From Pedosphaera sp. (GTDB lineage Bacteria; Verrucomicrobiota; Verrucomicrobiia; Limisphaerales; Pedosphaeraceae), in contig JAQGPA010000138.1 in assembly GCA_028293325.1 (NCBI GenBank), positions 1-45,379 of the forward strand: a stretch of DNA of 45,379 bases, read 5' to 3'. The first letter of the stretch is position 1; every line of letters starts with the position of its first letter. This document shows positions 15,560 through 44,714 of the stretch, in pieces. The translations under genes were made by a program, and so were the position numbers. A model generated the notes under the pieces. The model was not told the origin of the DNA. It worked only from the letters and a program-made list of their open reading frames with translations, and did not search any database.

Positions 15560-15937
15560 CTGAGAATTAAAGAAACGCCTGATTTTATTAGGTGAACGTG
15601 GATTGTGAATAACTCGTGAATAAAAGTTAATATGTTGTCCTCGTAACATGAACACGATTGGAATAAAAAGTAGCACCTCGGTGAGATTTCGTAAGCTGTC
15701 GTTTACTCTCGAAAAGTGCGAACCGGGATTTTTGGGTCGGATTATACGTAAGTAATTGAAACAAATGAATTTGCGCAGCGTAATTAGAGTCACGGCAGCG
15801 GTGAAGAATGGGTCTACGATTGATTTTGTTGGTTTGCCGGCGAATTCGGATTATAAAAGCATCGCAAAGGAAGTGTTACAGGCTCGTTACGGGGTTAGGT
15901 GAATAAAACGCCCGAAAATAGGGCGAATGGGATAATA
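15560..15937. other. AT-rich region upstream of dnaA with DnaA-box-like motifs (candidate oriC or dnaA autoregulatory region)
   Basis: tgtgaataa (15604-15612) is the reverse complement of TTATTCACA, which fits TTATNCACA. Near-matches cgtgaataa (15616-15624) and ggtgaataa (15898-15906). GC content is visibly lower than flanking genes. Confidence 0.35.
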
Positions 15938-17299
15938 ATGATGCAATCTTCTGCCGATAAAGTCTGGACTGCAGCGCAACAACAATTGCGCTCCATGTTG
16001 AGTCCGGACACTTTCAATCTCTGGTTCGCCCCGCTGCGCGCACAGACCCTGGATGCCGAATGCATCACCCTCGAGGTCGCCAATGATTTCTGCGAGGTCT
16101 GGCTTAAGGACAACTACATGGGCCTGCTGCAGGACGTGTTGTCGCGTTCTTCCGGCCAACCGATGCATGTTAAATTCAAAGTCGTGCCGGGTGGCGCTGT
16201 TGTCACCGCGCCCATCACGCACGCCAGCCACGCCAAAGCCAAGCCCGCGGAAACCGCCACCGAGCGCACCTCCGCTGAACTCGCGTTCAATCCCAAAAAC
16301 ACTTTCGACAGCTTCGTCGTTGGCAATAACAATAATTTCGCCCATGCCGCCGCCATGGCGGTCGCCCAGGCGCCCGGCAAATCCTACAATCCGCTGTTTC
16401 TTTATGGCGGTGTCGGTCTTGGCAAAACTCACTTGCTCCACGCCATCGGCCAGCATGTCGTCAGCCAAAGAAAAGGCGCGCGCGTTTCCTACGTCTCCTC
16501 GGAAAAATTTACCAACGAGTACATCGACGGCATCCAGAACAACCAACTCGCCCGTTTCCGGAAGAAATATCGCCAGACCGAAGTCTTGTTGATCGATGAC
16601 ATCCAATTCCTGGCCGGCAAGGAACGCATCCAGGAGGAATTTTTCCATACCTTCAACGCCCTGCACGAATCGCATAAACAAATCGTCCTCACGTGCGACC
16701 GTCCCGCCAGTGAAATCCAAAACCTCGAGCAACGCCTCGTCTCCCGTTTCGAATGGGGTTTGGTCACGGATTTGCAGCCGCCCGATATCGAGACTCGCCT
16801 GGCCATCCTGCGGAAAAAAGCCAAGTCTCTCGGCGTGGAACTGCCCGAGGAGATTATTAATTTCCTGGCGCATCGCATTCGCGCCAACATCCGCCGCCTG
16901 GAAGGCGCCTTGATCCGCGTCGCTTCCTACGCCTCGCTGACCGGCAAGAAATTGAGCATTGAAGTCGTGGAAGGCTTGTTGCGCGAAGTGCTGCACGAAG
17001 AAGGCCGCTTTTCCATCAACATTGAAGTCATCCAAAAGCGCGTGGCCGAGCATTATGATATTCGCCTGGCCGACATGACCAGCAAGCGCCGTCCGGAAAA
17101 TATCGCCTTTCCCCGTCAGGTGGCCATGTTCCTCTCCCGCCAAATGACGGAAAGCTCCCTCAACACCATCGGTGAAGCCTTTGGCGGACGCGATCACGGC
17201 ACTGTCCTCCACGCCTGCCGGCTCGTCAAAGACCGCATGGAAGTGGACGCCAATGTCCGCCAGGTGGTGCAATATCTGGAAAAGCAGTTGCTCCGTTGA
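15938..17299 (+). CDS. dnaA: chromosomal replication initiator protein DnaA
   Basis: N-terminal DnaA domain I (VWTAAQQQLRSMLSPDTFNLWFAPL). AAA+ Walker A GGVGLGKTHLL and Walker B LLIDDIQF. C-terminal DNA-binding domain IV (VAMFLSRQMTESSLNTIGEAFGGRDHGTVLHA). The start is placed at the ATG ATG pair; the ORF track begins at an upstream GTG. Confidence 0.95.
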   Translation: MMQSSADKVWTAAQQQLRSMLSPDTFNLWFAPLRAQTLDAECITLEVANDFCEVWLKDNYMGLLQDVLSRSSGQPMHVKFKVVPGGAVVTAPITHASHAKAKPAETATERTSAELAFNPKNTFDSFVVGNNNNFAHAAAMAVAQAPGKSYNPLFLYGGVGLGKTHLLHAIGQHVVSQRKGARVSYVSSEKFTNEYIDGIQNNQLARFRKKYRQTEVLLIDDIQFLAGKERIQEEFFHTFNALHESHKQIVLTCDRPASEIQNLEQRLVSRFEWGLVTDLQPPDIETRLAILRKKAKSLGVELPEEIINFLAHRIRANIRRLEGALIRVASYASLTGKKLSIEVVEGLLREVLHEEGRFSINIEVIQKRVAEHYDIRLADMTSKRRPENIAFPRQVAMFLSRQMTESSLNTIGEAFGGRDHGTVLHACRLVKDRMEVDANVRQVVQYLEKQLLR

Positions 17300-25490: not shown

Positions 25491-26537
25491 TCATCCAAGT
25501 CTTTGGCGCAGCATTTCTGCAACACGAATAAAGGCCTGACCGGGAGGCTTTTCCGGTGCAGAAACCACCACCGGCACCCCTTCATCGCCCCCAATTCGAA
25601 TCTCTGTAAATATTGGAATCTCACCTAGAAAAGTCGTCTTTTGGCGCTCTGCTTCCTGCCGTCCGCCCCCATGTCCAAAAATCTCCACTCTATCGCCGTT
25701 GGGTGCAGTGAAATAGCTCATGTTCTCAATGATCCCCAGTATCGGCACATTGACCTTCTCGAACATGGCAATCCCCTTGCGCACCACTCCCAGCGACGCC
25801 TCCTGCGGCGTGGTCACAATCACGCCGCCATCCAACGGGACGGTCTGGCACAGGGAGAGTTGCGCGTCCCCGGTTCCCGGCGGCAGGTCCACGAACAAAT
25901 AATCCAATTCACCCCAGGCCACAGCAGTCACGAATTGTTGAATGGTCTTCATGATCATCGGCCCGCGCCAGATGACCGGACTGTCGCCCTCAATCAAAAA
26001 ACCCATGCTCATGAGTTTCACCCCATGGCTGACCGGCGGCACCATCATGGTTTCGTCTTCGGTGACGGTCGGTTTTTTCTGCGTCCCCATCATCAGCGGA
26101 ATGCTCGGCCCGTAAATATCGCAATCCAACAAACCCACTCGCAACCCAAGATGTTGCAACGCGCAGGCGAGATTGACCGAGGTGGTTGATTTGCCCACGC
26201 CACCCTTCCCGCTCGCCACGGCCACGATGCGCTGGATGCCTGGCACCTTGTTCTGATTCTGCCATGGACTCTGCGCCGACGCCGCTTGCGGCCCCGTTGG
26301 CGCCTTGACCTCGACATGCACCAGGTTGACACCCGGTAACGCTTTCAACGCCCGTTCGCTCTCAGTTTTGATTTGTTGCGCCACCTCCGGCGTGCCGGAC
26401 GTCAATTGCAGCGAGACACTGACCGCCCCGTCCTTGGCGTTGATCTGTTTCACCAGCCCAAAGGAGACGATATCGCGGCTGTAACCGGGATATTTCACGC
26501 TGCTGAGCGCACTTTTAATTTGTTCTTCGGTAATCAT
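25491..26537 (-). CDS. apbC: Mrp/NBP35-family iron-sulfur cluster carrier ATPase (ApbC)
   Basis: N-terminal DUF59-like domain, P-loop AVASGKGGVGKST, and the CxxC Fe-S ligand motif region. 348 aa. Confidence 0.9.
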   Translation of the reverse strand: MITEEQIKSALSSVKYPGYSRDIVSFGLVKQINAKDGAVSVSLQLTSGTPEVAQQIKTESERALKALPGVNLVHVEVKAPTGPQAASAQSPWQNQNKVPGIQRIVAVASGKGGVGKSTTSVNLACALQHLGLRVGLLDCDIYGPSIPLMMGTQKKPTVTEDETMMVPPVSHGVKLMSMGFLIEGDSPVIWRGPMIMKTIQQFVTAVAWGELDYLFVDLPPGTGDAQLSLCQTVPLDGGVIVTTPQEASLGVVRKGIAMFEKVNVPILGIIENMSYFTAPNGDRVEIFGHGGGRQEAERQKTTFLGEIPIFTEIRIGGDEGVPVVVSAPEKPPGQAFIRVAEMLRQRLG

Positions 26538-26611: not shown

Positions 26612-27853
26612 TCAATGGACAGATTTGGTTGCGCCGGCCGCCTCTTCCCTGGGTTGGAGCACCGAATCGATGGTCCCGTGCTGAAATTCATCCCACAACG
26701 GCGACAACCCGCGCAGCTTCTTCACCACCTTCTCAAAAGTCTCCGCCACGTATTCCATTTCCTCACTGGTATTCTCCTTACCGAGCGATATCACAAGGTT
26801 CCCCTGTGCCAACGCATGGTCAAGCCCGGTGGCCTCCAGCACATGCGAGACCTTCAACGCCTTGCTGATGCAACTGGGCCCGCTTGCCGCCGCAATGCCT
26901 TGCATATCCAGCAACAACAACATCCCCTCGCCCTCCACAAACTCCACGCTCACATTCAGATTTGTGCTGATGCGCTGCGGCCCAGGCTCCGGCCCGTTCA
27001 GTTTGATGTAAGGAATGCGCGCCTTAAGACTCTCCCACAACTTGCGCTGCAAGTTTGCGGTATGGGCAATCCGGCGCGGCATCTCGCGCAAAGCAATCTC
27101 CGCCGCCACGCCCGCACCCACAATGGCCGGCACGTTCTCCGTCCCCGCACGTCGACCTTCTTCCTGGCTCCCGCCCTGCTGAATCCCATTCAACCGCGCC
27201 CGCCGATTGCGGTACAAAACTCCCACGCCTTTCGGCCCGTAAAAACGATGCGGAGAAAGTGAGAGCAACCCCGCGCCCATCGCCTGCACATCCACCGGCA
27301 ACCAACCGCCGCTCGCCACCGCATCCACAAAAAACGGAATCCCCCGTTCCCCAGCCAGCGCGCCAATCTCACGAATTGGCTCAATGGTCCCTAACTCATG
27401 GTTCACGTGATGCACACAAACCAAAATGGTCTGCTCCGTCAGCGCGGCCCGCACCTGTTCCGGATCCACGAACCCGGCCGCGTCCACCTTGATCTTCGTG
27501 CAGGTGAACCCCTGCTTTTCCAGAAATTCAATGGAGTTGAGCACCGACAAATGCTCCGTGGCGCTCACCACGATATGATTCCCCTTGCGCTGCCGCGCGT
27601 ACGCCGTTCCTTTTACCGCCAGATTGGCCGATTCCGTCGCGCCGGATGTAAAGATGATGTCTTCGGGCGATTCCGCATTAATGAGCGCCGCGATTTGCGA
27701 TCGCGCCTTGCCCAACGCATCACGCGCTCGTAAGCCGTGGCGATGCAGCGACGCCGGCGCGCCAAAATGCTCCGTGAAGTACGGCGTCATCGCTTCCAGC
27801 ACGGCCGGTAAAACCGGTGTGGTGGTTTGGTGGTCTAAAAATACGTGGCGCAT
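26612..27853 (-). CDS. cysteine desulfurase (class V aminotransferase, IscS/NifS family)
   Basis: PLP-lysine region (SLSPHRFYGPKGVG), the GTENV motif and an active-site Cys loop (SGPSCIS). 413 aa. TGA stop. Confidence 0.85.
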   Translation of the reverse strand: MRHVFLDHQTTTPVLPAVLEAMTPYFTEHFGAPASLHRHGLRARDALGKARSQIAALINAESPEDIIFTSGATESANLAVKGTAYARQRKGNHIVVSATEHLSVLNSIEFLEKQGFTCTKIKVDAAGFVDPEQVRAALTEQTILVCVHHVNHELGTIEPIREIGALAGERGIPFFVDAVASGGWLPVDVQAMGAGLLSLSPHRFYGPKGVGVLYRNRRARLNGIQQGGSQEEGRRAGTENVPAIVGAGVAAEIALREMPRRIAHTANLQRKLWESLKARIPYIKLNGPEPGPQRISTNLNVSVEFVEGEGMLLLLDMQGIAAASGPSCISKALKVSHVLEATGLDHALAQGNLVISLGKENTSEEMEYVAETFEKVVKKLRGLSPLWDEFQHGTIDSVLQPREEAAGATKSVH

Positions 27854-32096: not shown

Positions 32097-32609
32097 ATGC
32101 CGGCATTCATCGAACTTGAGCAGCTTTACGATGACCATGCCCCGGCATTGTTCGCCTTCCTGCTCAACTTCACCCGCAACGAAGCGGATACCCGCGATGT
32201 CCTCCAGGAACTCTTCATCAAGCTGGCCCGCAAGCCCGATTCCCTCGCCAATATCCGCGACCCGCGCGCCTTTCTGCTCCATCTCGCCCATAATCTGGCC
32301 ATCGACCTCATGCGCCGGCGCGGGACGCGCGAGAAGCATTACGAGCAACTGGCCGCGGAAAGCGAAAATCTCTTTGCCGCTTCAGCCAACCCGGATCAAC
32401 AGGAATTCCGCTCGGCGCTAACCCGGGCATTGGGTGAATTGCCCGCCGACCAGCGCGCGGTGGTTCACTTGAAACTTTGGGAAGGCCTGACCTTTGAACA
32501 AATTGCTACCGCGCTGGATCTCTCCGCCAACACCGCTGCCAGCCGCTATCGCTACGGCCTAGACAAATTGCGCGAGCGCCTGCGTCCACTCTATGAAGAA
32601 ATCAAATGA
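32097..32609 (+). CDS. ECF-type RNA polymerase sigma factor (sigma-70 regions 2 and 4)
   Basis: Region 2 (DTRDVLQELFIKL) and a region 4 helix-turn-helix (LTFEQIATALDLSANTAASRYRYG). 170 aa. Confidence 0.85.
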   Translation: MPAFIELEQLYDDHAPALFAFLLNFTRNEADTRDVLQELFIKLARKPDSLANIRDPRAFLLHLAHNLAIDLMRRRGTREKHYEQLAAESENLFAASANPDQQEFRSALTRALGELPADQRAVVHLKLWEGLTFEQIATALDLSANTAASRYRYGLDKLRERLRPLYEEIK

Positions 32610-33042
32610 TTTGAAGCCGATGAACCCGGACGATTTCGAACAACAACTCCAGCGCCAACCGCTGCGCCCACTTCCCGCCGATTGGCGCGCCGACATCTTG
32701 CAGACGGCCCGGGCCGCCGCTTCGCAAACCTCAACTTCGAATCCGCAACCCGTTCGCCAATCCTTTCTCGCCACTCTCCTCTGGCCCTGCCCCCAAGCCT
32801 GGGCCGGACTTGCCGCCGTCTGGCTGGCGCTCCTGGCCCTGAATTTTACAACGACCGACCAGCCGGCGACCGCCGCCGAAACCAAAACCCAGCGCTCGCC
32901 GCAACTGCTCGCGGCCTTGCGAGAACAGGAACGCATGTTAGCGGAACTCCTCCAACCGTGGGAACCGCAGGCGGCTGAACCGCCGAAACCCGCAAACCAT
33001 CAGCCCCGGAGCGAACGACAGAGAACGACCGCTTTCGCCTGA
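32593..33042 (+). CDS. putative anti-sigma factor (single-pass membrane protein) overlapping the ECF sigma gene by 17 nt
   Basis: 149 aa. Cytoplasmic N-terminus, one hydrophobic helix (LAAVWLALLALNF), Pro/Gln-rich C-terminus. The position and overlap are typical of ECF anti-sigma partners. Confidence 0.45.
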   Translation: MKKSNDLKPMNPDDFEQQLQRQPLRPLPADWRADILQTARAAASQTSTSNPQPVRQSFLATLLWPCPQAWAGLAAVWLALLALNFTTTDQPATAAETKTQRSPQLLAALREQERMLAELLQPWEPQAAEPPKPANHQPRSERQRTTAFA

Positions 33043-33064: not shown

Positions 33065-34732
33065 ATGAACGAACCCAGCACCAGCATTTGGAAACGACAG
33101 ATTATTCCTGAATTGGGCGTATTCAGGTTCTTTCGCTGGCTTTTCAGTTGGCGGATGATTCGCCGCTATCTGTTCTGCCTCGCCTGCCTGGTCACGTTGC
33201 TTGCGCTGTTCTACGCCGAGGAAAACTGGCGCGGCAGGCATGCTTGGGAAAAATATAAGCGCGAAGCCATCGCGCGCGGTGAGCAGTTCAATGTCTCCGC
33301 CTTCATTCCGCCAACGGTCCCGGACGACCAAAACTTTGCCGCCACCCCCTTCTTCGCATCGCTCTTTGATTTCAAGCCTGGCACCCAGGAGGCCCGCGAC
33401 ACCAATGCAACCCGTCGCTTTGCGGAATTTCAGTCACACCATTACCCATCCCCAGCCGCCGCTGAATCAAAGGCTCCCAAGGCAACCCCGGTCAATAGCT
33501 GGGTCCGCCATCAACCAAATCTGCCGTTCTGGTATTCGGAATTTGTCCAATCCACCAACAAGGTTTCTCACTCCGCCTCTGACCTTGCGTTGACCAATGC
33601 CAGTCCTCAAGAAGCGGCACGTGACATCATGACCGCGCTGGCTTTTGCCAATCCGGTGCTGGACGAAATACGAACCACCAGCCAGCGGCCGGCTTCACGT
33701 TTCAATATCCGCTACGAGAACGATGATCCGGCGGCAATCCTGCTGCCGCATCTCGCCGGGTTGAAGGAAATCACAGTAATTCTGCAAACCCGCGCCTTCG
33801 CGGAGTTGACCCTCGGCCAGACGAACGAAGCCTTTGATGACTTGATCCTGTCACTCCGCATGACCGATGCGCTCAAGGATGAGCCCATTATCATTTCGCA
33901 ACTGGTTCGCTCTGCCCAATTGAATATTGCCATTTTGCCAATCTATCAGGGACTCGTGGATCACCAATGGACGGAACCGCAATTGCGGGCGTTGCAGGAA
34001 AAACTGGAGCATTTTGATTTTTGCAACGACGGCCAGCGCGCGCTCCAGTCGGAACGTGTTTTTTTTGGTGGCGGGATATTCGAATTCCTTCGGCACGCAC
34101 CCAGCAATTACAAGTTGCTTTTCTTCGTAAGTGGCGCACCAGATGACCAGCTAGGCGGTAATAGCATTTCGGGACAGGCCATCGGCTTTGGCATGGCCAT
34201 CGCTCCAAAGGGTTGGTCGTATTTTGAACAACTCAACTACACTCGCACCTACGGCGACTTGCTGCTGCCGATTATCGATTCCGAGAACCGCCGCATCAAC
34301 CCCGCTCTTTGCGCCAAGGCCGACCAGCAGCTCGGCGGCGAATTGAAACGCAGTCCTCGCAAGTTGTTCTTTCATCACCAGGTCTTTTCCGCCTTGTTGC
34401 TTCCCGCCCTGGCCAACATTGTTCAAAAAACGGCACGCACCCAGACCGCCGCAGATGAGACAGTGCTGGCGTGCGCGCTGGAGCGTTATCGCCTGGCACA
34501 TGGACAATTTCCCGAAACGCTCGACGCCCTCATGCCGCAGTTCATCAGCCAACTCCCGCACGACGTCATCAATGGCCAATCGTATCACTACCGGCTCACG
34601 TCCGACGGCCAATTCGTCCTCTATTCCGTCGGCTGGAATGAAACCGACGACGGCGGCACAGTTGCCACAACCACGACTGGCTCCACTGATTTCAAAAACG
34701 GCGACTGGGTCTGGCAATATCCCACCCGCTAA
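33065..34732 (+). CDS. hypothetical membrane-anchored protein (555 aa), probably exported; co-oriented with the sigma/anti-sigma pair
   Basis: N-terminal TM helix (YLFCLACLVTLLALFYA). No recognised catalytic motif. Confidence 0.5.
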   Translation: MNEPSTSIWKRQIIPELGVFRFFRWLFSWRMIRRYLFCLACLVTLLALFYAEENWRGRHAWEKYKREAIARGEQFNVSAFIPPTVPDDQNFAATPFFASLFDFKPGTQEARDTNATRRFAEFQSHHYPSPAAAESKAPKATPVNSWVRHQPNLPFWYSEFVQSTNKVSHSASDLALTNASPQEAARDIMTALAFANPVLDEIRTTSQRPASRFNIRYENDDPAAILLPHLAGLKEITVILQTRAFAELTLGQTNEAFDDLILSLRMTDALKDEPIIISQLVRSAQLNIAILPIYQGLVDHQWTEPQLRALQEKLEHFDFCNDGQRALQSERVFFGGGIFEFLRHAPSNYKLLFFVSGAPDDQLGGNSISGQAIGFGMAIAPKGWSYFEQLNYTRTYGDLLLPIIDSENRRINPALCAKADQQLGGELKRSPRKLFFHHQVFSALLLPALANIVQKTARTQTAADETVLACALERYRLAHGQFPETLDALMPQFISQLPHDVINGQSYHYRLTSDGQFVLYSVGWNETDDGGTVATTTTGSTDFKNGDWVWQYPTR

Positions 34733-34742
34733 CGCCAACCTC

Positions 34743-36440
34743 CTAATCCTTCGCGCTCAGCGAACCAATCACCCCACCCGGCGCGTGATAACTGTGGCAG
34801 GTCGCACAACCACTCGCCACCCCGCCCTTGGGACTGTGACATTCCACACAACTTGATTTGCTCGGCAGCAGCACATCCGCCGTCTCACGACTCCGCTCTA
34901 CGTCATGGCATTTGGCGCAAGCCATATTGATATGCTTTGCGTGATTGAATTGGCCGCGAATCAACCACCGCGTCATTTGAACCGGCGGCACAATGTCCGG
35001 CGCGGCGTCCGCGCCGGTCGCTTTAACCTCATGGCAATACGCACATCCGGGGTATCGCGCACGGGCGGGTTGCTCTCCGTCGCCGGTTTTCTCCATCGGG
35101 CCGTTGTGGGCATCGCTGAAGAAAACCTGCTGTTCCAAATTCTCACCCGCCAGGGCTTGCTTCCGCAGTCCCGCCATTTGCAGTTTCACAAATGCGTCCA
35201 ATTCAACCTGCGTCGTCAGGCCCTTCTTGTTGCGCCCATATTCCGCGTATTGCGCGGGCAGGCTGCGCAGAAAAGCGCGCGCAAACTCCGCGTTCCCGTG
35301 CGGAATCGACAACTCCGGATTCTTCTCGTCGAATTGCAGCGAGTGGCAAACCTTGCAATTCTGCTCGTAGGAAACCGGCTGATAATACAAACCCGTCGCG
35401 TCCGGTTTATGACAGGTGGCGCAATCCAGTTTTTTGCCGTTCACGGATGGAATGTTCGGCGAGCCCAGATGCAGTTGATGATTAAATTTGAGCGTGTCGG
35501 GATCGCGCAGCTTTTCAGCCAGCACTTGAAATTCCGGATGATCGGTCGCAAAGGTGTGGATCACCTTCGTGTAACCCTGCTCCGGTCGCGGCGCCTTGAA
35601 CATCGTCCACCCAAGGTCGGGCCGATAATCAAATGCCGCCGCCGGAAGCTCCTTGCCTCTCTGGAACGAGGCTTGCATGACCTGCCCATCTGCATGACAC
35701 GAGGCGCAATTCGCATCTTCCGGCCGCTGCATCACCATTCCTTGATGTTCCCGATGGCACGCGGAGCAGGAATGGTCGCGCACCACGTTCGGTTCATGAA
35801 AATTGTGACGTTGATGACAAGTCTGGCAGGACGCGTCAATCGCCGTCAACCCCGTGTTCGTCGTGGCCAGCAGCTTGTGAAACTCCAGCAATGCCGGATC
35901 CGCTCCCGCCGCGGAACCCAGCCAGCGGGCCGGTCCCGCGCCGGCCGCGCCGTGACACGCCGCGCAATCCTGCCCGTTGCCGCCCGCGCCCCGATGCATC
36001 CGCGCGAATGCCTCCGTGGAATGTTGCGCGGACAGCCTTCCGGGATTGATGAATTGCGAACGAAAGGGTCCGCTCAACGATACCAGCAACACCGCCACCG
36101 TGAGCATCACCACCACCCGAGTGAACACCTTCCGTTTTGCGCGCAAGCTGCGGACTGGCTGGCATTTGGTAATGGCCCGGCAGCAGGTGCCGTCGGGCAA
36201 CGGCCCGGTTTCGCACGCCCCGCCAAACTCCGCCGTGCGCGTGCAACGATAGCGCCCCTTCGTTTCTCCCTCCTTGAGTTCAAGCACCGGCCGGCATTCA
36301 AACGTCGCGCGGCACCGGCCGCTGGGATCGGGCCCGATGCGACAACATTGCCCCTTCGCCGCCTTGCCGCAAATCCAATCCTGGTTGGGCCGCGCATACT
36401 GGCTGGCGTCAAATTGAGGCGCGGGCAATTGCTCTTTCAC
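34743..36440 (-). CDS. decaheme c-type cytochrome with N-terminal Cys-rich (cytoplasmic?) domain and one TM helix
   Basis: Ten CxxCH motifs (CAACHG, CQTCHQ, CSACHR, CASCHA, CATCHK, CKVCHS, CAYCHE, CAKCHD, CVECHS, CATCHS). N-terminal ~95 aa hold 10 Cys in two tandem C...CC...C...C-(R/Q)P units before the TM VVVMLTVAVLLVSL. The start overlaps the upstream gene's stop (ATGA). Confidence 0.85.
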   Translation of the reverse strand: MKEQLPAPQFDASQYARPNQDWICGKAAKGQCCRIGPDPSGRCRATFECRPVLELKEGETKGRYRCTRTAEFGGACETGPLPDGTCCRAITKCQPVRSLRAKRKVFTRVVVMLTVAVLLVSLSGPFRSQFINPGRLSAQHSTEAFARMHRGAGGNGQDCAACHGAAGAGPARWLGSAAGADPALLEFHKLLATTNTGLTAIDASCQTCHQRHNFHEPNVVRDHSCSACHREHQGMVMQRPEDANCASCHADGQVMQASFQRGKELPAAAFDYRPDLGWTMFKAPRPEQGYTKVIHTFATDHPEFQVLAEKLRDPDTLKFNHQLHLGSPNIPSVNGKKLDCATCHKPDATGLYYQPVSYEQNCKVCHSLQFDEKNPELSIPHGNAEFARAFLRSLPAQYAEYGRNKKGLTTQVELDAFVKLQMAGLRKQALAGENLEQQVFFSDAHNGPMEKTGDGEQPARARYPGCAYCHEVKATGADAAPDIVPPVQMTRWLIRGQFNHAKHINMACAKCHDVERSRETADVLLPSKSSCVECHSPKGGVASGCATCHSYHAPGGVIGSLSAKD

Positions 36441-37273
36441 CGCGCGCCCCCCGAGAAGGCGTAAACCAAAATGATGTGAACGATGGAAAAGATGAGCAGG
36501 CTGTAGGTCAGCGGAATATGCACGAACAACCAGCCGCGCAACGAGAGTTGCAGCGCATGATGATAATCCAATCCATCCTTCTGCCGCACCAGTTCGGCGA
36601 TTTTCTCCAATGTCTCCCGCTCCTTCGCGTCTGAATAACGGTTCAGGTCGCTAATCTTGTTGAGCAGCAGGTTCAACGGCCGGCGCACTTCCAAAAAGTG
36701 CAGCGAAAGATTCTGCGGCCTCTCAAAAAAGTCCTTCAACTGGGTGATGTAAAAATTTGCAATCGTAGGCGAGCGCGCCTCGCTCACCGATTGTAACGCC
36801 AACGCCTCCGCCTGTTGCTGAAAGCCGCGGCGAATCGCCGGAATCCGCTCATACAATATTTCACCGCCGCGTGTCGTCAGCCGCTTCGGAATCGACCGCG
36901 AGACGAATAATCCCCACACCCCGCTCAACGTCACCAGCACATACAGCCATGCGAGTGTCCCCTGAAACCAGCCGGTCGGCATTTTATAACTGATATGAAT
37001 CGCAAACAAAATCACCGTCAGCAACCCGGCATAAATATGAAATTGCAGCCAGCTTTCCGACGAGCCGAGCGGCAGGAACGGCAATTTCTTGCGCCCGTTA
37101 TACGCGGTCAACACCAGCATTACCGCGAACAGCACCCAGCCGGAAACATAACTTAGGCGCGGCATCACTCCGGCATACTTCGCATGCTCGGCCATCGCCC
37201 ACGCACCGAATGCCACCAGCATCCCCAGCCCCATCCAGCGTTGTCGGGTGAAGGAGGTCATCGCTTCAGCCAC
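36437..37273 (-). CDS. ferric-reductase-like (FRD/MsrQ-like) di-heme-b transmembrane protein
   Basis: 6 predicted TM helices. Two H-x13-H pairs in TM helices: HIYAGLLTVILFAIH and HIPLTYSLLIFSIVH, the spacing diagnostic of bis-heme ferric reductase domains. Confidence 0.6.
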   Translation of the reverse strand: MAEAMTSFTRQRWMGLGMLVAFGAWAMAEHAKYAGVMPRLSYVSGWVLFAVMLVLTAYNGRKKLPFLPLGSSESWLQFHIYAGLLTVILFAIHISYKMPTGWFQGTLAWLYVLVTLSGVWGLFVSRSIPKRLTTRGGEILYERIPAIRRGFQQQAEALALQSVSEARSPTIANFYITQLKDFFERPQNLSLHFLEVRRPLNLLLNKISDLNRYSDAKERETLEKIAELVRQKDGLDYHHALQLSLRGWLFVHIPLTYSLLIFSIVHIILVYAFSGGAR

Positions 37274-38997
37274 TTTGCGAACGTGTCCAGATCATTTAGA
37301 TTCATCCGTTTCAACGCGCCGTGCGGACACGCCCGCTCGCACGATGGCCCGCCAATTTGCTCCACGCACAAATCGCACTTCGTGGCCTTGATGATCGGTT
37401 TCATTTCCTTGTCCACCATCAACTCCCCTTCGCCATCACGAATTTCCACCATGCGAATCGCATCGTAAGGACAATTGTTGAAACACGCCTTGCAGCCAAT
37501 GCACGTGGTCGGATTAATGACCACCTCGCCGCCAAACGCATCGCGGTGAATTGCCCCGGTCGGGCAGCCAATCATGCAAACCGGATCCACGCAATGCATG
37601 CACGCGTTGGCCACCATGATCTTGCCGTTGGTCAAACCGTGGCGCAAAAAGCGCGGGTTGTTATCATGTGACGCCGCGCAGGCCCGCACGCAATCATCGC
37701 ACCGCGTGCAGCGATCCAAATCAATCAACATCGACGCCGTGCCGTTAAAGAAACGGTTCTCCGTCAAAAACTCCAGCGTGTCCGCCCCGATCTTGGCGGC
37801 GGCATCCGTTTGGTTTTCGATTTCGTTCAGGACAAAGGCGTCATCCTCCACCTGCACCGGCGGTGGCAGTTTGGCCTTCGGCACCGTGGGCAGCACGATG
37901 GTTTCCATGATCGCCGTCGGAATCACCAGCACATGCGTGTAGCCGATGGACCGCAGGGTGTGTTGCAGCGGGACGGGGTTGCCGGGATTGCGCCAGTTGT
38001 GCACGATTTCCGCCAGCCCGTAATCGCGCCCCGCGCCGAGATAATTCAACGTCCGGTGTCCATGCCCAAACTTCTGGCTCAACCGCGCAAAGCCCGCGCG
38101 AATCAGCACCACCCCGTTGGGATAATCCCCTTCCTGGGCCACGACCGGTTCCTTTTCCGCCTGGCCCGCGTGCCCCGCCTGCGCGAGCCGTTTGTAATCA
38201 CCCGACCAATCATAGTCGCCGTACGTGCCGAATTCCGTGCGCGCCATCACCTTCTGCAAATCGGCGTCGGACAGATGCTGAAAGATCGGGATTTCGCGCA
38301 AGTGCGCCGCCAAAGCCCGCTCACGATAAATCTTATCAATGTGCGCCCGCAATTTGTCGTCGTAACGCATCAGGTCGCGCAGCCCCTGCCAGCGAATCTC
38401 CAACAGTTCGGTGTTGTCATCCTGGGCAAACACCGTGGCCGTGCGCGGCATGCGGCTCAACGCGGCAATCTCGCCAAAGAAATCACCCGGGTTGAGCACC
38501 GCCGTGCGATGCGCATCCAGGATGCGCGGCACATCCTGCAAAAAGATTTTGACCTGGTCGCCTTCATCCTTGCGCGCGCCAACGCGGGCATCCTGTTTCA
38601 ATTGGGAAGGCTTGAATCTTTCCGGTTCACGCGAATTGGACCAGAGCTGCGCCAGCACGCGCAGCAATCCTTTCCGCACCGGTTCGCGCCGGCCCAGGAC
38701 GGATGCGGGCAATTCGGGATTGAGCACCACACGCACACCGCCGGACACGACCATGAATGCGGAAGTGCCGTGATCGCCCGCGCGCACCACGATTTCACCC
38801 TGGCGATAACGCCGCAGGCGGGTGTCGTGTTGCAGAATGTCGCGCAGAGCCAGTCGCTTTGGAAAACCCTCGGGGTTCATCTCGTTGAACGGCGCGAGTC
38901 CCTGGATAAGCTCTGCCAACGCCGCCGGCATGTCGGGATCAAACGATGCGTCCCAGCGTTGCGGTCGTTCCAAAATAAGTGGTAAGGCGGCAGGCAT
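37258..38997 (-). CDS. cyclic-nucleotide-binding domain protein fused to a poly-4Fe-4S ferredoxin domain
   Basis: cNMP-binding motif GDFFGEIAALSRMPRTATVFA plus a second degenerate cNMP-like domain. C-terminal CTRCDDCVRAC, CMHCVDPVCMIGCP, CIGCKACFNNCP, CDLCVEQIGGPSCERACP (four 4Fe-4S cluster motifs). 579 aa. Confidence 0.8.
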   Translation of the reverse strand: MPAALPLILERPQRWDASFDPDMPAALAELIQGLAPFNEMNPEGFPKRLALRDILQHDTRLRRYRQGEIVVRAGDHGTSAFMVVSGGVRVVLNPELPASVLGRREPVRKGLLRVLAQLWSNSREPERFKPSQLKQDARVGARKDEGDQVKIFLQDVPRILDAHRTAVLNPGDFFGEIAALSRMPRTATVFAQDDNTELLEIRWQGLRDLMRYDDKLRAHIDKIYRERALAAHLREIPIFQHLSDADLQKVMARTEFGTYGDYDWSGDYKRLAQAGHAGQAEKEPVVAQEGDYPNGVVLIRAGFARLSQKFGHGHRTLNYLGAGRDYGLAEIVHNWRNPGNPVPLQHTLRSIGYTHVLVIPTAIMETIVLPTVPKAKLPPPVQVEDDAFVLNEIENQTDAAAKIGADTLEFLTENRFFNGTASMLIDLDRCTRCDDCVRACAASHDNNPRFLRHGLTNGKIMVANACMHCVDPVCMIGCPTGAIHRDAFGGEVVINPTTCIGCKACFNNCPYDAIRMVEIRDGEGELMVDKEMKPIIKATKCDLCVEQIGGPSCERACPHGALKRMNLNDLDTFAKWLKR

Positions 38998-39004
38998 GCG
39001 GATA

Positions 39005-40309
39005 TCAGGCGTCGAGAACGATACTACCGCGGGGTTTGCAAATGCACGTCAGGCACGAACCGCTTTCCGGCTTCTCGCCCGGTTCGCTCACATAGTCCAC
39101 GTCCCCGGATTTGATGGCGACCAGGCAACTTCCGCAACTCCCCGCCCGGCAGCCGGAATCAATCCGCACTCCGTTTTCCAATGCAAAATCGAGCAGCGAC
39201 CCCGTGCCGGGCTGCCATTGGCATTTCTTGCCCGACCGGCTGAACATGACTTCGATGGCCGCCACGCCCGCCTCGGCGGCTGGCGCCACTGGCGCGGCCT
39301 TCTTCTTCACTGTCGCCGGTCCAAATGCTTCGAAAAAGACACTCTTCTCCGGCACGCCCCATGCCTCGAGGCCGTCCGAAATGCTTTTCATAAACGCGCC
39401 ATTGCCACAGAGAAAATAATCGTAATTGTTGGACGGCAGCAGTTCCTTGAACAATTCCACGCACACCCGCCCTTCATGATGGTAATCAGTCCCTTTGCAG
39501 TCCTCCGCGTCCGGCCGGCTGTAACAGACATGCAAATGAATATTCTCATTTGCCGCCGCCAACCGTGCCATTTCCTCCTTGTGAATATGCTCCTTACGAT
39601 TCCGCGCGCCGAAGAAAAACCAGACCTCCCGCTTCGACCCGATCGCCGCAATCGCGTTGGCCATGCTCAACATCGGCGTCACTCCCACGCCGCCGGACAC
39701 CAGCACCACCGGCGCTTCCTTGGCCATATCCAGGAAGAAGTTCCCGCCCGGCGCTTTCACATCCAGTATGTCGCCTTCCTTCACGCGATCGTAGAAATAA
39801 CTCGAAGCCACGCCGGACGGCAGTTCGGGACGATTCGGCGGCGGCGGCTCTTTCTTGATCGTCACGCGATAATAATCGGTGCGATGCGGACTGTCCGAAA
39901 GCGAGTAACAACGCACCACCGGCTTGCCAATGCCCGGAATATTCAATTGAAATGTGATGTATTGCCCCGGTTTGTAAGGCGGCAGCGGCTTGCCATCGTG
40001 CGGCGCCAGATAAAAAGCGCAGACGCCATCGCATTCCTTGACCTTTTTGGCGACCTGAAATTTCCGATACCCATTCCACACCAACCGGGCCTGCTCGACC
40101 TCGCGACACTGCATTGCCGCGGCCTTGACGAGCAATTGCAGCCGTTCCCGGCTGTGTTTCTGATGCTCGCGCTCGAAATAAACCCGCCGGATGGTGATGT
40201 AGAGCAGCAGCAATCCTTGCAGCAAAAGAATTCCCAGCAGCGCGTAACCGAACGCCAGCCCAACACTCCCGCCCAGCGCCCGATGCAAGCTGTCGATAAT
40301 TGATTGCAT
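39005..40309 (-). CDS. membrane-anchored FAD/NAD(P)H oxidoreductase (ferredoxin-NADP-reductase-like) with C-terminal 2Fe-2S ferredoxin domain
   Basis: N-terminal TM (LAFGYALLGILLLQGLLLLYI). FAD-binding R-x-Y-S (VRCYSLS). NAD-binding GGVGVTPMLSM. C-terminal plant-type ferredoxin Cys cluster CRAGSCGSC...C. 434 aa. Confidence 0.8.
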   Translation of the reverse strand: MQSIIDSLHRALGGSVGLAFGYALLGILLLQGLLLLYITIRRVYFEREHQKHSRERLQLLVKAAAMQCREVEQARLVWNGYRKFQVAKKVKECDGVCAFYLAPHDGKPLPPYKPGQYITFQLNIPGIGKPVVRCYSLSDSPHRTDYYRVTIKKEPPPPNRPELPSGVASSYFYDRVKEGDILDVKAPGGNFFLDMAKEAPVVLVSGGVGVTPMLSMANAIAAIGSKREVWFFFGARNRKEHIHKEEMARLAAANENIHLHVCYSRPDAEDCKGTDYHHEGRVCVELFKELLPSNNYDYFLCGNGAFMKSISDGLEAWGVPEKSVFFEAFGPATVKKKAAPVAPAAEAGVAAIEVMFSRSGKKCQWQPGTGSLLDFALENGVRIDSGCRAGSCGSCLVAIKSGDVDYVSEPGEKPESGSCLTCICKPRGSIVLDA

Positions 40310-41557
40310 TGTCTCACTGATTTGTCTAACAAATCGATTGTGCTGAGTAAACTTCTAAGTGACCCCCGTCCGCGGCACGCTGCTTTTTTTTCGCAACCAC
40401 TCAAATCGCTTCCCGAATTCCGGCCTCCGTTTGGGGCGACACTGCTCCTGGGCGCGGCTCTTTTTGTCCTCGCCAGCCCGGTCAAAGCGGAGGGACCCGC
40501 CCTCACGCCGCCTAAGTTTCTTGGCGAGCTCAGTTGCAGTTCCTCCAGTTGCCACGGCGGGGCAGGTGAGAAGCGAAGCCAGTTTATCACCTGGTCCCGG
40601 CGCGATTTCCATACCCGCTCCTACGCCACGCTGACCACCGCCCGTTCTGCCCGCATCGCGGAATCACTTAAAATCAGCGCCCCCACGCAAAGCGCCCGTT
40701 GCACGGTCTGCCACGCTCCCTTTCAAACCGCCCTTCCCGCGCAATTGGCTGCAGACGTCGATTTCACCAAAGGCGTCTCATGCGAAACCTGCCATGGCCC
40801 GGCCGAAAACTGGTTGCGTTCGCATACCCGCCCCGATTGGACCCATCAGGATCGCGTCCACGCCGGCATGCGTGACTTGCAGGACTTGTATGTGCGCGCC
40901 AACAATTGTGTCGCCTGCCACCAAAACGTCGAGGCCGACCTCCTGCGCGCGGGCCATCCCGAACTCATCTTTGAACTCGACGGCCAATCAGTGACCGAAC
41001 CAAAACATTGGCACGAACTGGCTGGCTGGTCGGGCGCGCAAACCTGGCTCGTCGGCCAGGCCGCCGCCTTGCGCGAAATGAGCTGGCAGTTAACCCGCGA
41101 AAAATCCCCCACCGAAAGCATGACCCAACGCTGGGCCGCGTTGCTTTGGCTGCTCCAACAAACAGCATCATCCCCCGCCGCTCCCATTGATCCAACTCCC
41201 GATAACTTGTCGTTCACCCAAAAATGGGCCGACCAACTCGCGCGCGAAACCGCCGCAACCCCGTGGACGCCCGAATCCACCCGCAAATATCTGACCACCC
41301 TCGCCGGCACCGCCGAATCCTTCCGCGCAAAATCTTCCTCGCAACCCATTCAAGCCCGCCGCGCCGAAAGATTAGCCCTCGCGCTGGACCGCTTGGTCAC
41401 AAGTTTGAACGACAAGCAAACTGCCAATCGCCTCGACCCATTCTTGAACAAGTTATTCAAAGACGCCCAATCCCTGCCCGACTTCAACCCCAACCAATTT
41501 GCCGCCCATTTGGAAGAGTTCGCGAAATGCCTTCCCGTCTCCCTTGCTGTTAAATAG
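40304..41557 (+). CDS. tetraheme c-type cytochrome (exported)
   Basis: CSSSSCHG (CxxxxCH), CTVCHA, CETCHG, CVACHQ, and a signal-peptide-like LLLGAALFVLASPVKA. The ORF-track ATG at 40304 overlaps the divergent gene's start, so the true start is probably a downstream non-ATG codon before the signal peptide. Confidence 0.65.
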   Translation: MHCLTDLSNKSIVLSKLLSDPRPRHAAFFSQPLKSLPEFRPPFGATLLLGAALFVLASPVKAEGPALTPPKFLGELSCSSSSCHGGAGEKRSQFITWSRRDFHTRSYATLTTARSARIAESLKISAPTQSARCTVCHAPFQTALPAQLAADVDFTKGVSCETCHGPAENWLRSHTRPDWTHQDRVHAGMRDLQDLYVRANNCVACHQNVEADLLRAGHPELIFELDGQSVTEPKHWHELAGWSGAQTWLVGQAAALREMSWQLTREKSPTESMTQRWAALLWLLQQTASSPAAPIDPTPDNLSFTQKWADQLARETAATPWTPESTRKYLTTLAGTAESFRAKSSSQPIQARRAERLALALDRLVTSLNDKQTANRLDPFLNKLFKDAQSLPDFNPNQFAAHLEEFAKCLPVSLAVK

Positions 41558-41813: not shown

Positions 41814-44714
41814 ATGAAGCGCCATTTTCATTTTATAACCATCCTGGCTGTCCTTGCCGCCGTTTATTTTCTGGCCGGCAAATTTGGACTATCACTTGCT
41901 TTCATCAATGCCAGCGCCACTGCGGTGTGGCCGCCCACCGGCATCGCCCTCGTCGCCGTGCTGTTTTGGGGATACCGGGTATGGCCTGCCATATTTTTAG
42001 CCGCTTTCCTGGTGAACTTTACCACCGCCGGTTCTTTTGCGACTTCGCTGGGCATCGCCGCCGGCAACACGCTCGAAGCCCTGCTCGGCGGATGGTTGGT
42101 CAACCGCTATGCCCAGGGCACGGACGCACTCAATCAGCCCAAAACCGTTTTTAAGTTCGTCCTTCTGGCCGGCATGCTCAGCACCATGGTGAGCGCCACC
42201 TTGGGACTCGCCTCCCTTTCGCTGGGCGGATTCAGTCCTTGGGCAAACTTCGGCTCAATTTGGTTGACCTGGTGGATTGGAAATCTGGTCAGCAATATTG
42301 TGGTGGCGCCGCTGTTGTTGGTTTGGAGGGTCAGACCCTATCCGCGTTTGAAACCGTCGCAGGCTTTCGAAGCCGTACTGCTGTTCGCAAGCGTCATATT
42401 GTTTGGTCAAACCGTTTTTGGTGGCTGGCTTATTCCCAGGGGCAGCGGTTACACTCTTGAATACCTCGTGATTCCGCCACTTTTGTGGGCGGCTTGGCGC
42501 TTCGGCTTGCGCGGGGCCTCGGTGGTGATCGTCACCCTATCCTTAATCGCCATCGGGGGCACCCTTCGGGGCTCCGGCCCGTTTGCCCGGCAAGACCACA
42601 ATACCGGTCTGCTGCTGTTGCAAATTTTCATGGCGGCCATCGCGCTCACCGCGCTCGTGCTGGCCGCGGTGATTCGGGAGCGAAATCAAAACCTCAGCCG
42701 GCTCACCATGCAGTATGCTGTGGGGCGCGCCCTGGCCGAGTCCGCGACGCCGGCCGAGGCGAGCAGGAGAATCCTGCCGCTGGTCTGCTCCGCGTTGGAA
42801 TGGGAACTGGGCGCGACTTGGATGGTGGACGAGCACGCCCGGGTCTTGCGGCCCGTGGATTTCTGGCATTCGCCTTCGGTAATCGTGGCGGAATTTGAGG
42901 CGCTCACCCGCAGCACCACCTTTCCACCAGGCGTGGGGCTGCCCGGAGAAATCTGGGCCCGGGGCGAGTCTCACTGGATTTCAGATGTAACCCTGAGCAA
43001 TAATTTCCCCCGCATCCCCATGGCCTTGCGCAACGGCCTGCATGCGGGCTTTGGCTTTCCCATCTCGGCCGGCAACAAAATTCTGGGCGTGATGGAATTT
43101 TTCAGCCGCAATGTCCGTCCGCCGGACCAGGATCTGTTGGATACCTACACCGCCATTGGCCGGCAAATCGGCCAGTTCATTGAACGCAAACAGGCGGAAG
43201 TGGCATTGTCGGAAAGCAACGCACTCAAAACCGGAATCCTGCGGTCCGCCTTGGATTGCATCATCACCATGGACCAGGCCGGGAGGATCGTTGAGTTTAA
43301 TCCCGCTGCCGAAATGACTTTTGGCTATCGCCGGGACGAAGTCATCGGTCGTCTCATGGCCGAAGTCATCATTCCGCCCCACTTGCGGGAGGCGCACACC
43401 CGCGGCCTGGCCCGCTACCTAACCACAGGCGAAGGACCGGTCTTGGGCAAACGGATTGAAATGACGGGCATGCGCTCGGATTCCACCCTGTTTGCCCTGG
43501 AATTGACGATCACGCGGATTGAGCTGGAGGGGCCGCCCCTGTTTGCCGGGTTTATGCGGGACATTACCACCGTGAAGCAGGCCGAGGCCGCTCTGCGCCA
43601 ATCGGCAGAGCGGCTCCGGTTTATGGCGGAATCCATGCCGCAAAAAATCTTCACGGCCAAACCGGATGGCACTGTCGATTATTTCAACCAGCAATGGACG
43701 GCGTTCACTGGCCTCCCCTTTGAACAGATTCGCGGCTGGGGTTGGACACAATTTATTCATCCCGATGAGGTGGCGGAAAATGTGCGCCGCTGGCGCCACT
43801 CGCTCGAAACCGGCGATCCTTTTCAAATGGAGCACCGGTTCCGCCGTGCCGATGGCCTCTACCGCTGGCACCTGAGCCGCGCCCACGCGCTGCGCGACGA
43901 CACCGGCCAGGTGCTCATGTGGATTGGCTCGGACACCGACATCGAAGATCAAAAGCGCGCGGAACAGAACCTGGAGCGGGTCGTGGCTGAGCGCACCGCT
44001 AAACTGCAGGAAACGATTGGCGACCTGGAAGCGTTCTCCTATAGCATCTCGCACGACCTGCGCGCCCCCTTGCGGTCCATGACGGGATACATCCGGATCA
44101 TCCAGGAAGATTTTAGCGACAAAGTTGGGCCGACGGTCAATGGCTACCTCACGCGCATCTCCACCGCCGCCGCGCGCATGGACAAACTCATTCAGGACGT
44201 GCTCACCTTGAGCCGCATGGCTCGCATTAATTTGCAACTGCAACCGGTGGACATGGAGAAACTTTTCCGCGGTGTGTTGGATGTGTACCCCAATCTGCAA
44301 CCCCCGCACGCCGAGATTCGAATTGAAAGCCCGCTGCCACCAGTCCTGGGCAACGAGGCGGCCTTGACCCAATCCATTTCCAATCTTCTGGGTAACGCGG
44401 TCAAGTTTGTCGCGCCGGGCGTGCTCCCCCAAGTGCGGGTTTGGGCGCAGGAAAAAGGCGACTGCATCCGCTTTTATTTCCAGGACAACGGCATTGGCAT
44501 CGCCCCCGATCATCAAGAGCGCATTTTCAACATGTTTGAGCGACTCCATTCCACCACCGACTATCCGGGCACCGGCATTGGCCTGGCCATCGTCCGCAAG
44601 TCAGTCGAACTCATGGGCGGCAAAGCCGGCGTCGAATCAGAGCCGGGCAAAGGCAGCACATTCTGGTTGGAATTAAATCGCGCAACACCGCTGGAAACAC
44701 CCGGGTCCGGTTAG
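41814..44714 (+). CDS. multi-domain sensor histidine kinase (MASE1-like membrane domain, GAF, two or three PAS, HisKA, HATPase_c)
   Basis: N-terminal polytopic membrane region; GAF-like (LGATWMVDEHARVLRPVDFW); PAS (ILRSALDCIITMDQAGRIVEFNPAAE..., PQKIFTAKPDGTVDYFNQQW); H-box SHDLRAPL; G-boxes GTGIGLAIV. 966 aa, TAG stop. No response regulator gene is adjacent. Confidence 0.9.
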   Translation: MKRHFHFITILAVLAAVYFLAGKFGLSLAFINASATAVWPPTGIALVAVLFWGYRVWPAIFLAAFLVNFTTAGSFATSLGIAAGNTLEALLGGWLVNRYAQGTDALNQPKTVFKFVLLAGMLSTMVSATLGLASLSLGGFSPWANFGSIWLTWWIGNLVSNIVVAPLLLVWRVRPYPRLKPSQAFEAVLLFASVILFGQTVFGGWLIPRGSGYTLEYLVIPPLLWAAWRFGLRGASVVIVTLSLIAIGGTLRGSGPFARQDHNTGLLLLQIFMAAIALTALVLAAVIRERNQNLSRLTMQYAVGRALAESATPAEASRRILPLVCSALEWELGATWMVDEHARVLRPVDFWHSPSVIVAEFEALTRSTTFPPGVGLPGEIWARGESHWISDVTLSNNFPRIPMALRNGLHAGFGFPISAGNKILGVMEFFSRNVRPPDQDLLDTYTAIGRQIGQFIERKQAEVALSESNALKTGILRSALDCIITMDQAGRIVEFNPAAEMTFGYRRDEVIGRLMAEVIIPPHLREAHTRGLARYLTTGEGPVLGKRIEMTGMRSDSTLFALELTITRIELEGPPLFAGFMRDITTVKQAEAALRQSAERLRFMAESMPQKIFTAKPDGTVDYFNQQWTAFTGLPFEQIRGWGWTQFIHPDEVAENVRRWRHSLETGDPFQMEHRFRRADGLYRWHLSRAHALRDDTGQVLMWIGSDTDIEDQKRAEQNLERVVAERTAKLQETIGDLEAFSYSISHDLRAPLRSMTGYIRIIQEDFSDKVGPTVNGYLTRISTAAARMDKLIQDVLTLSRMARINLQLQPVDMEKLFRGVLDVYPNLQPPHAEIRIESPLPPVLGNEAALTQSISNLLGNAVKFVAPGVLPQVRVWAQEKGDCIRFYFQDNGIGIAPDHQERIFNMFERLHSTTDYPGTGIGLAIVRKSVELMGGKAGVESEPGKGSTFWLELNRATPLETPGSG

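Follow-up and report, generated by a model that had tools for sequence, protein, structure and literature searches.

A cyclic nucleotide-binding tandem joined to a predicted four-cluster iron–sulfur domain in a conserved multihaem cytochrome operon of Pedosphaera sp.

Contig JAQGPA010000138.1 of a Pedosphaera sp. metagenome-assembled genome (MAG; assembly GCA_028293325.1) was analysed over positions 1 to 45,379, and we call this whole stretch the window. At 37258-38997 its minus strand holds exactly one ATG-to-stop open reading frame (ORF) of 579 amino acids (aa), labelled a hypothetical protein by NCBI, which we name ptdE after the published family to which it is assigned below. The gene lies within a tightly packed minus-strand operon and has redox partners on both sides. 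A Pfam scan of the product gave cNMP_binding in three stretches (E 7e-24) and Fer4_7, Fer4_11 and related models at aa ~461-562 (E 4e-12 to 7e-10); Fer4_11 is the family to which DmsB/HydN-type proteins belong. Neither NCBIfam nor Pfam has a curated family that spans the whole architecture. Because PtdE has neither a transmembrane (TM) helix nor a signal peptide, it is predicted to be cytoplasmic. An AlphaFold2 model built with an 83-sequence alignment was confident (mean pLDDT 91.9, pTM 0.88). The gene and the parts of its product, including two cyclic nucleotide-binding (CNB) domains, are the following, with the cassette coordinates computed from the ORF start at 38997:

37258..38997, minus strand: ptdE, encoding a 579-aa protein predicted to be cytoplasmic, with tandem CNB domains, a linker and a HydN/HycB-type domain for four [4Fe-4S] clusters
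aa ~40-235 of PtdE: CNB1, with a canonical cassette at aa 174-188 and an insertion of ~65-70 aa
38434..38478, minus strand: codons of the CNB1 phosphate-binding cassette, F174-G-E-I-A-A-L-S-R-M-P-R-T-A-T188, with Glu176 and Arg185
aa ~240-370 of PtdE: CNB2, a CNB fold with a non-canonical cassette
37261..37732, minus strand: codons of aa ~422-579, with the HydN/HycB-type four-cluster Fe-S domain at aa ~422-575 and its four motifs of 16 Cys in all

A sequence-only reading of this DNA had described a canonical cyclic nucleotide signature, a second and degenerate domain of the same kind, and four Cys motifs typical of 4Fe-4S clusters, all embedded in a redox operon, and each of these descriptions was borne out. 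The signature, GDFFGEIAALSRMPRTATVFA, corresponds to aa 171-191, and no gap is needed to align the CNB1 cassette within it with those of Plasmodium PKG and PKA RI-alpha in solved structures. The CNB1 cassette consists of Gly-Glu, an Arg at +9 from the Glu and then Thr-Ala-Thr, and its Glu-Arg spacing is identical to that of the PKA-R/PKG modules. Conservation was counted in an alignment of 83 diverse PtdE homologues with identities down to ~30%. G175 is kept in 81 of them, E176 in 69 (83%), R185 in 72 (87%) and a Thr or Ser at position 188 in 78, and the complete G-E...R triad is found in 61 (73%). Since Glu176 and Arg185 are retained at the canonical spacing, loss of the cassette cannot be held against nucleotide binding for the window protein or for most of the family. 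The R-T-A-T sequence resembles the cGMP sites of PKG, and the cAMP-binding CNBs of bacteria match the cassette equally well.

In a Foldseek search, ~350 columns of the N-terminal part of PtdE aligned to the tandem CNB-A/CNB-B of PKA-R and PKG, with E values down to 1.8e-16. According to the model, aa ~240-370 is a real CNB fold, and like PKA-R and PKG the protein has two successive folds linked by a long B/C helix. This hinge helix, aa 203-234, holds a nearly invariant L-E-I-R-W-Q-G segment. The CNB2 cassette reads Y-G-L-A-E...L-R-S, with Ala after the conserved Gly-Leu, and 21-22 residues separate G327 from R349 where a canonical cassette has 10, making it ~12 residues longer than in the PKA-R/PKG modules. 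PtdE differs from these modules also in the CNB1 insertion (aa ~93-165), which is structured (pLDDT 82-92) and found family-wide, in the absence of a kinase partner and of any inhibitor or dimerisation-docking segment, and in its output, which is an Fe-S domain.

The Cys of that domain form four groups, C430/433/436/440, C466/469/474/478, C499/502/505/509 and C541/544/553/557. Fourteen of the 16 are invariant among the 83 homologues and the remaining two are at least 90% conserved, and four [4Fe-4S] clusters are therefore expected. The groups have the CxxCxxCxxxC, CxxCx4CxxxCP, CxxCxxCxxxCP and CxxCxnCxxxCP forms of HydN/HycB/DmsB-type proteins and the fold matches as well. The NCBIfam models nearest to the C-terminal ~155 aa are HydN, AegA, DmsB, DsrO and HybA. 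PtdE belongs to no named equivalog family, its NCBIfam scores lying far under the cut-offs (e.g. 61.4 vs 260 for HydN and 55 vs 214 for DmsB). The best solved relatives of the domain are HycB3 and HycB4 of the hydrogen-dependent CO2 reductase, ArrB, HyfA and PsrB. In one respect PtdE is like the HydN/HycB/NrfC/PsrB/DmsB-type subunits, since its docking partner is apparently a dihaem cytochrome b of the membrane, as FdnI is for FdnH. Unlike them, it has no twin-arginine translocation (Tat) signal and is predicted to stay in the cytoplasm, it has neither a molybdopterin or hydrogenase catalytic partner nor an NrfD-type membrane subunit, and it carries a 420-aa CNB tandem that is absent from the matched solved four-cluster subunits, which are chains of 150-330 aa.

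A reductase, a membrane protein and multihaem cytochromes adjoin ptdE in the window:

39005..40309, minus strand: ptdC, 434 aa, with an N-terminal TM helix, FNR-like FAD_binding_6 and NAD_binding_1 domains and a C-terminal plant-type 2Fe-2S ferredoxin domain
36437..37273, minus strand: ptdF, probably started at the ATG at 37261 and encoding a membrane protein of ~274-278 aa that has about 5 TM helices
34743..36440, minus strand: ptdG, 565 aa, with a Cys-rich N-terminal cytoplasmic domain, one TM helix at aa 105-123 and, on the periplasmic side, a cytochrome c with 10 CXXCH motifs (decahaem)
40304..41557, plus strand: ptdD-like, divergent, a secreted c554-like tetrahaem cytochrome with one CX4CH and 3 CXXCH motifs, given as the maximal ORF

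The reductase module of PtdC is nearest to flavohaemoglobin reductase, NqrF and phthalate dioxygenase reductase. The ptdF ATG at 37261 overlaps the ptdE stop (ATGA) and the GTG start of ptdG overlaps the ptdF stop (GTGA), which indicates translational coupling of ptdE, ptdF and ptdG. PtdF has two His pairs, H79/H93 and H252/H266, each an H-x13-H within predicted TM helices, and all 78 orthologues aligned have these four His (100%). From this pattern we propose that the protein is a transmembrane dihaem cytochrome b. The 10 CXXCH motifs of PtdG are kept in 68 of 77 orthologues.

The first ~103 codons of ptdG (36132-36440, minus strand) encode a ~100-aa cytoplasmic domain ahead of the single TM helix. 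Across 78 orthologues, eight of its Cys (C24, C33, C43, C49, C66, C76, C86 and C93) show 97-100% conservation. The domain has no Pfam match and may face PtdE, binding a metal or an Fe-S cluster or serving for docking. The first haem motif of the window PtdD, at aa 78-84, is a CX4CH (C-SSSS-CH) in place of the fourth CXXCH found in an Alphaproteobacterial PtdD (locus L077), and the haems of this protein are undercounted as three if CXXCH alone is counted. The start of ptdD is uncertain, homology to relatives beginning only at ~aa 40-70 in most loci. Apart from the ptd cytochromes, no ORF of the window has two or more CXXCH motifs.

The sequence-only reading had implied that a fusion of this kind is rare and new, a view contradicted by our census. 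A search of 1.84 billion representatives at 50% identity returned 544 clusters at E<=1e-30, and 118 of the best 150 representatives have at least 500 aa and the whole Cys pattern. At 90% identity, both cNMP_binding and Fer4 are present in every one of the 120 best clusters, and those relatives to which the databases give a name are called 'cyclic nucleotide-binding domain-containing protein' or 'Fe-S-cluster-containing dehydrogenase component/CRP-like cAMP-binding protein'. With one genome per GTDB species, at least 557 relatives were found among the 600 candidate stretches listed (tblastn, E<=1e-3), some of which may be relatives by the Fe-S domain only. At least 80 species genomes hold a full-length or near-full-length relative, and these best 80 matches are 48-73% identical to the window PtdE. 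They come from Verrucomicrobiota (Limisphaerales, Opitutae, Chthoniobacterales and Luteolibacter), Planctomycetota, Alphaproteobacteria, SAR324, Nitrospinota, Gemmatimonadota and others, and include the complete genome of Ca. Uabimicrobium amorphum and the cultured Hwanghaeella grinnelliae. Close relatives are from bog, wood, lake and groundwater samples. When the window neighbours were searched by tblastn against 82 related loci from at least six phyla, the order ptdC-ptdE-ptdF-ptdG was kept in virtually every locus long enough. The tetrahaem gene is divergent and upstream in loci of the Limisphaerales/Opitutae type, and lies between the reductase and the CNB-FeS gene in other lineages.

The family has been annotated and named before, as PtdE of a ptdABCDEFG cluster in Alphaproteobacteria of marine oxygen-deficient zones (Elbon, Stewart & Glass, bioRxiv 10.1101/2023.11.21.568154). 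That preprint lists Alpha- and Gammaproteobacteria, Nitrospirales and Planctomycetes of saline environments as hosts of the operon (bioRxiv 10.1101/2023.11.21.568154). Among the papers found on cNMP-ferredoxin fusions it was the only relevant one; two on extracellular electron transfer in Verrucomicrobia (PMC5615132 and 10.64898/2026.05.27.727921) deal with other clusters of porins and multihaem cytochromes and mention no cyclic nucleotide protein. In the Alphaproteobacterial locus L077, genes with 5, 0 (the porin candidate), 4 and 10 CXXCH motifs stand in the published order. With 48% identity between the PtdE of L077 and the window protein over aa 4-579, we regard the window gene as a ptdE orthologue. 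The study by Elbon, Stewart and Glass is reportedly also out in Appl Environ Microbiol (2024).

The window agrees with the published cluster in domain composition and in the neighbours, which are an FAD/NAD(P) oxidoreductase, a membrane protein resembling ferric reductases, and one tetrahaem and one decahaem cytochrome, and its PtdE is 48-52% identical over the full length to those of loci in the published order. It differs in having neither ptdA (a pentahaem protein with a beta-sandwich) nor ptdB (the porin), in the divergent transcription of ptdD, in a shorter ptdG product (565 vs ~700-830 aa) and in its host, a Verrucomicrobial MAG where the hosts of the preprint are marine or saline. A further difference is that 16 conserved Cys point to four clusters, whereas PtdE was credited with two 4Fe-4S clusters (bioRxiv 10.1101/2023.11.21.568154). 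Searched by tblastn against the 45-kb window, PtdA and PtdB of L077 gave nothing better than E 0.4, and homologues of the two genes occur in 19 of the 82 loci and in none of the Limisphaerales/Opitutae-type loci L001-L045. Because ptdA and ptdB are absent from its 45 kb, the window holds a core ptdD/CEFG variant. By these comparisons the window PtdE is a new member of a named family, in an operon of the Limisphaerales/Opitutae type that has no porin. The possibility, raised with the sequence-only reading, that the architecture would prove a common and already characterised family was thus half right: the family is common and has a name, and it is uncharacterised.

Two kinds of natural variant inform the function of PtdE. 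In the first, two proteins of 843-856 aa (P0137 and P0156) are fusions of PtdE to PtdF, 35-40% identical to the window PtdF in the membrane part, and the gene of P0137 is directly upstream of a multihaem cytochrome gene. PtdE and PtdF therefore act as a physical unit. In the second, one or two FHA domains are found ahead of or between the CNB domains (P0125, P0129 and P0204). FHA domains bind phospho-threonine. The gene of P0125 (locus L083, 7001-9565) stands in the same type of operon, with a reductase, a cytochrome, the CNB-FeS protein, a membrane protein and a multihaem cytochrome. The additions thus mark the N-terminal region as a variable signalling input joined to a constant Fe-S output, and suggest that in the FHA-bearing relatives other signals feed into the same Fe-S wire. 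They strengthen the idea of a regulatory input put forward by the sequence-only reading. The further suggestion of that reading, an allosteric effect of cAMP or cGMP on electron flow, is no more than plausible, the full triad being missing in 22 of the 83 homologues.

The ptd operon probably carries electrons from NAD(P)H over the membrane to multihaem cytochromes, and PtdE is very probably the Fe-S wire of the module. True gating of PtdE by a cyclic nucleotide is a closer question, and we put its chance at somewhat under one half. We hold, tentatively and at rather less than even odds, a joint reading in which PtdE is the Fe-S subunit of a PtdC-E-F-G(+D) module and the CNB tandem is its ligand-operated switch. 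The observations on which it builds are the domain composition, the conservation both of the operon and of residues for ligand and cofactors, the translational coupling and the PtdE-PtdF fusions. In this scheme, which postulates the occupancy of the cofactor sites, the direction of the electrons, the identity of the nucleotide and both the sign and the mechanism of regulation, NAD(P)H would reduce the FAD of the membrane-anchored PtdC as the entry point, and the electron would pass to the 2Fe-2S domain of PtdC and along the four [4Fe-4S] clusters of PtdE. It would then cross the membrane via two b haems on the four invariant His of PtdF, and arrive at the periplasmic decahaem PtdG and tetrahaem PtdD and from there at a further periplasmic or extracellular acceptor. 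Electron flow in this outward direction is downhill and helped by the membrane potential, and inward flow runs against the potential.

The PKA-R-like CNB tandem would be the switch of this path. A cyclic nucleotide would occupy the intact CNB1 cassette (Glu176 and Arg185) and shift the hinge helix (aa 203-234) that joins the two CNB domains, and the shift would alter the docking of the PtdC 2Fe-2S domain to the Fe-S wire or electron uptake from it, so that the conduit is opened only upon a metabolic signal. A direct post-translational switch makes sense here, because a path exporting NAD(P)H electrons skips the quinone pool and dissipates the membrane potential. The fuller claim is that a second messenger acts directly on the Fe-S subunit and gates a quinone-independent conduit from NAD(P)H over Fe-S clusters and a dihaem cytochrome b to a decahaem cytochrome c, with FHA/phospho-threonine gating in related members; it is more doubtful, and we advance it as a conjecture. 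Genes for the conduit are carried by many uncultured Verrucomicrobiota, Planctomycetota and marine Proteobacteria.

An inferred likeness of the scheme is to the NOX and ferric-reductase-domain systems and to MsrQ-Fre, where electrons also run from cytoplasmic NAD(P)H to a flavin, to two stacked b haems on H-x13-H helices and to the outer face. In contrast to these, the Ptd parts are spread over several subunits, one 2Fe-2S centre and four 4Fe-4S clusters would lie between flavin and haems, and the acceptor would be a decahaem cytochrome c instead of O2 or Fe(III).

Several observations weigh against the joint reading, some of them touching the electron path and others the switch. PtdF has no detectable homology to Ferric_reduct in Pfam, where its one match, to DUF4405, is weak and sub-threshold (22.1 bits vs a cut-off of 26.7), and no solved structure was matched among PDB sequences, so that the His pattern by itself carries the proposed dihaem assignment. 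The locus of one PtdE-PtdF fusion (L085, 7001-9532) has no ptdC within 7 kb upstream, and NAD(P)H may for this reason not be the universal donor. The function of the cluster was called 'completely unknown' by its discoverers (bioRxiv 10.1101/2023.11.21.568154). As to the switch, the complete G-E...R triad is missing in 22 of the 83 homologues (27%), and since these lack the cassette Glu or Arg, nucleotide binding cannot be essential to the core function of the family. The CNB2 cassette is non-canonical throughout the family, the ~27 window ORFs that were scanned include no nucleotide cyclase, and to judge by the high pTM of the model the CNB and Fe-S domains are packed rigidly together, which fits a scaffold as well as a switch.

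The main rival builds on these last points and takes PtdE as an electron wire whose CNB tandem is vestigial or structural and would be a scaffold or a docking platform, e.g. for PtdC or for the 8-Cys domain of PtdG. The incomplete triads, the CNB2 cassette and the absence of a cyclase among the scanned ORFs are all in keeping with it, the pTM of 0.88 implies a fixed arrangement of the domains, and the family-specific insertion of ~65-70 aa sets CNB1 apart from sensor CNBs. Against a merely structural role, the Glu (83%), the Arg (87%) and the Thr or Ser at position 188 (78 of 83) are retained to ~30% identity, indicating purifying selection on the phosphate-ribose site, the cassette of the window protein is fully canonical, and the FHA additions in relatives point to a signalling input at the N-terminal region. 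We consider the scaffold unlikely, and the best of the alternatives.

A second alternative keeps the ligand-gated switch of the joint reading and changes the ligand, to cGMP or another nucleotide or nucleoside at CNB1, with a signal other than the classical one for carbon or energy. A Thr after the cassette Arg favours cGMP, as in PKG and cyclic nucleotide-gated (CNG) channels, and the residue right after the Arg185 position is Thr or Ser in 43 of 72 PtdE homologues. cGMP signalling is, on the other hand, generally known to be rare in bacteria, and the conserved Arg speaks against ligands that are nucleosides only, such as those of PKA-R in trypanosomes, which makes this alternative improbable.

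Least probable of the three, and in our view quite improbable, is an inward flow from periplasmic cytochromes to NAD(P)+ or another cytoplasmic acceptor, or a PtdE that acts as a redox sensor and reports the state of its Fe-S clusters via the CNB domains. The direction of flow is not fixed by the sequence, a Nitrospinota locus is among the relatives, and ptd genes are present in nitrite oxidisers, which need reverse electron flow (bioRxiv 10.1101/2023.11.21.568154). Physical reasoning opposes the inward path, because transfer through a dihaem cytochrome b would then run against the membrane potential and could not be driven by the proton motive force. The sensor is opposed by the absence of any output domain past the Fe-S wire, by the solved complexes matched, in all of which four-cluster domains of the HydN/HycB/NrfC type are electron wires, and by the fusion to a membrane cytochrome, which suits a conduit over a soluble sensor.

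Four other explanations were rejected: a CRP/FNR-type transcription factor, as there is no helix-turn-helix and the fold matches PKA-R-like tandem CNBs; a periplasmic subunit of the NrfC/DmsB type, for want of a Tat signal and of an NrfD or molybdoenzyme partner; a chance ORF, given hundreds of conserved homologues; and an artefact of gene fusion or assembly, given that 118 of the 150 top representatives share the architecture, each with at least 500 aa.

If a cyclic nucleotide does gate PtdE, it would be, to our knowledge, the first case of such a molecule directly controlling an Fe-S electron-transfer chain. The module would then be a regulated, quinone-independent route for exporting NAD(P)H reducing power to periplasmic multihaem cytochromes. 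The module itself is found in several phyla that are dominant in peat, in soil, in freshwater and in marine waters deficient in oxygen. Iron, humics, nitrogen oxides and periplasmic repair reactions could be its acceptors. Hwanghaeella grinnelliae, which is cultured, and Ca. Uabimicrobium amorphum, which is co-cultured and has a complete genome, offer routes to testing. Gating aside, the analysis adds to the only published description four clusters instead of two, a predicted dihaem PtdF with invariant His, the PtdE-PtdF fusions, the 8-Cys cytoplasmic domain on PtdG and the porin-less core variant ptdCDEFG.

Other genes lie around the operon in the window. Directly downstream of ptdD, 41814-44714 (plus strand) encodes a 966-aa sensor histidine kinase with a MASE1 membrane domain, GAF, two PAS, HisKA and HATPase_c, and there is no adjoining response regulator. 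The related locus L001 has no such kinase by ptdD, and the adjacency is therefore apparently not conserved. Convergent to ptdG, the segments 32097-33042 and 33065-34732 (both plus strand) hold genes for an extracytoplasmic function (ECF) sigma factor, for a probable anti-sigma protein and for a 555-aa protein whose C-terminus is weakly like T2SS-G (type II secretion) or prepilin proteins. No related locus has a match to the 555-aa ORF, which is thus probably unrelated to the ptd module. The window also contains dnaA at 15899-17299 (plus strand; DnaA_N, Bac_DnaA and Bac_DnaA_C) and a dnaE-type gene for the Pol III alpha subunit at 4505-8140 (plus strand). The presence of both suggests that the chromosomal origin may be near; cumulative GC skew drops monotonically over the window and has no turning point at dnaA. 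At 25491-26537 and 26612-27853 (both minus strand), a gene for an Mrp/NUBPL-type Fe-S carrier ATPase (FeS_assembly_P and ParA) adjoins one for a class-V aminotransferase that is possibly a cysteine desulfurase. Their position ~8 kb downstream of the ptd genes could be a coincidence, or could reflect a capacity for Fe-S biogenesis near a system of five clusters.

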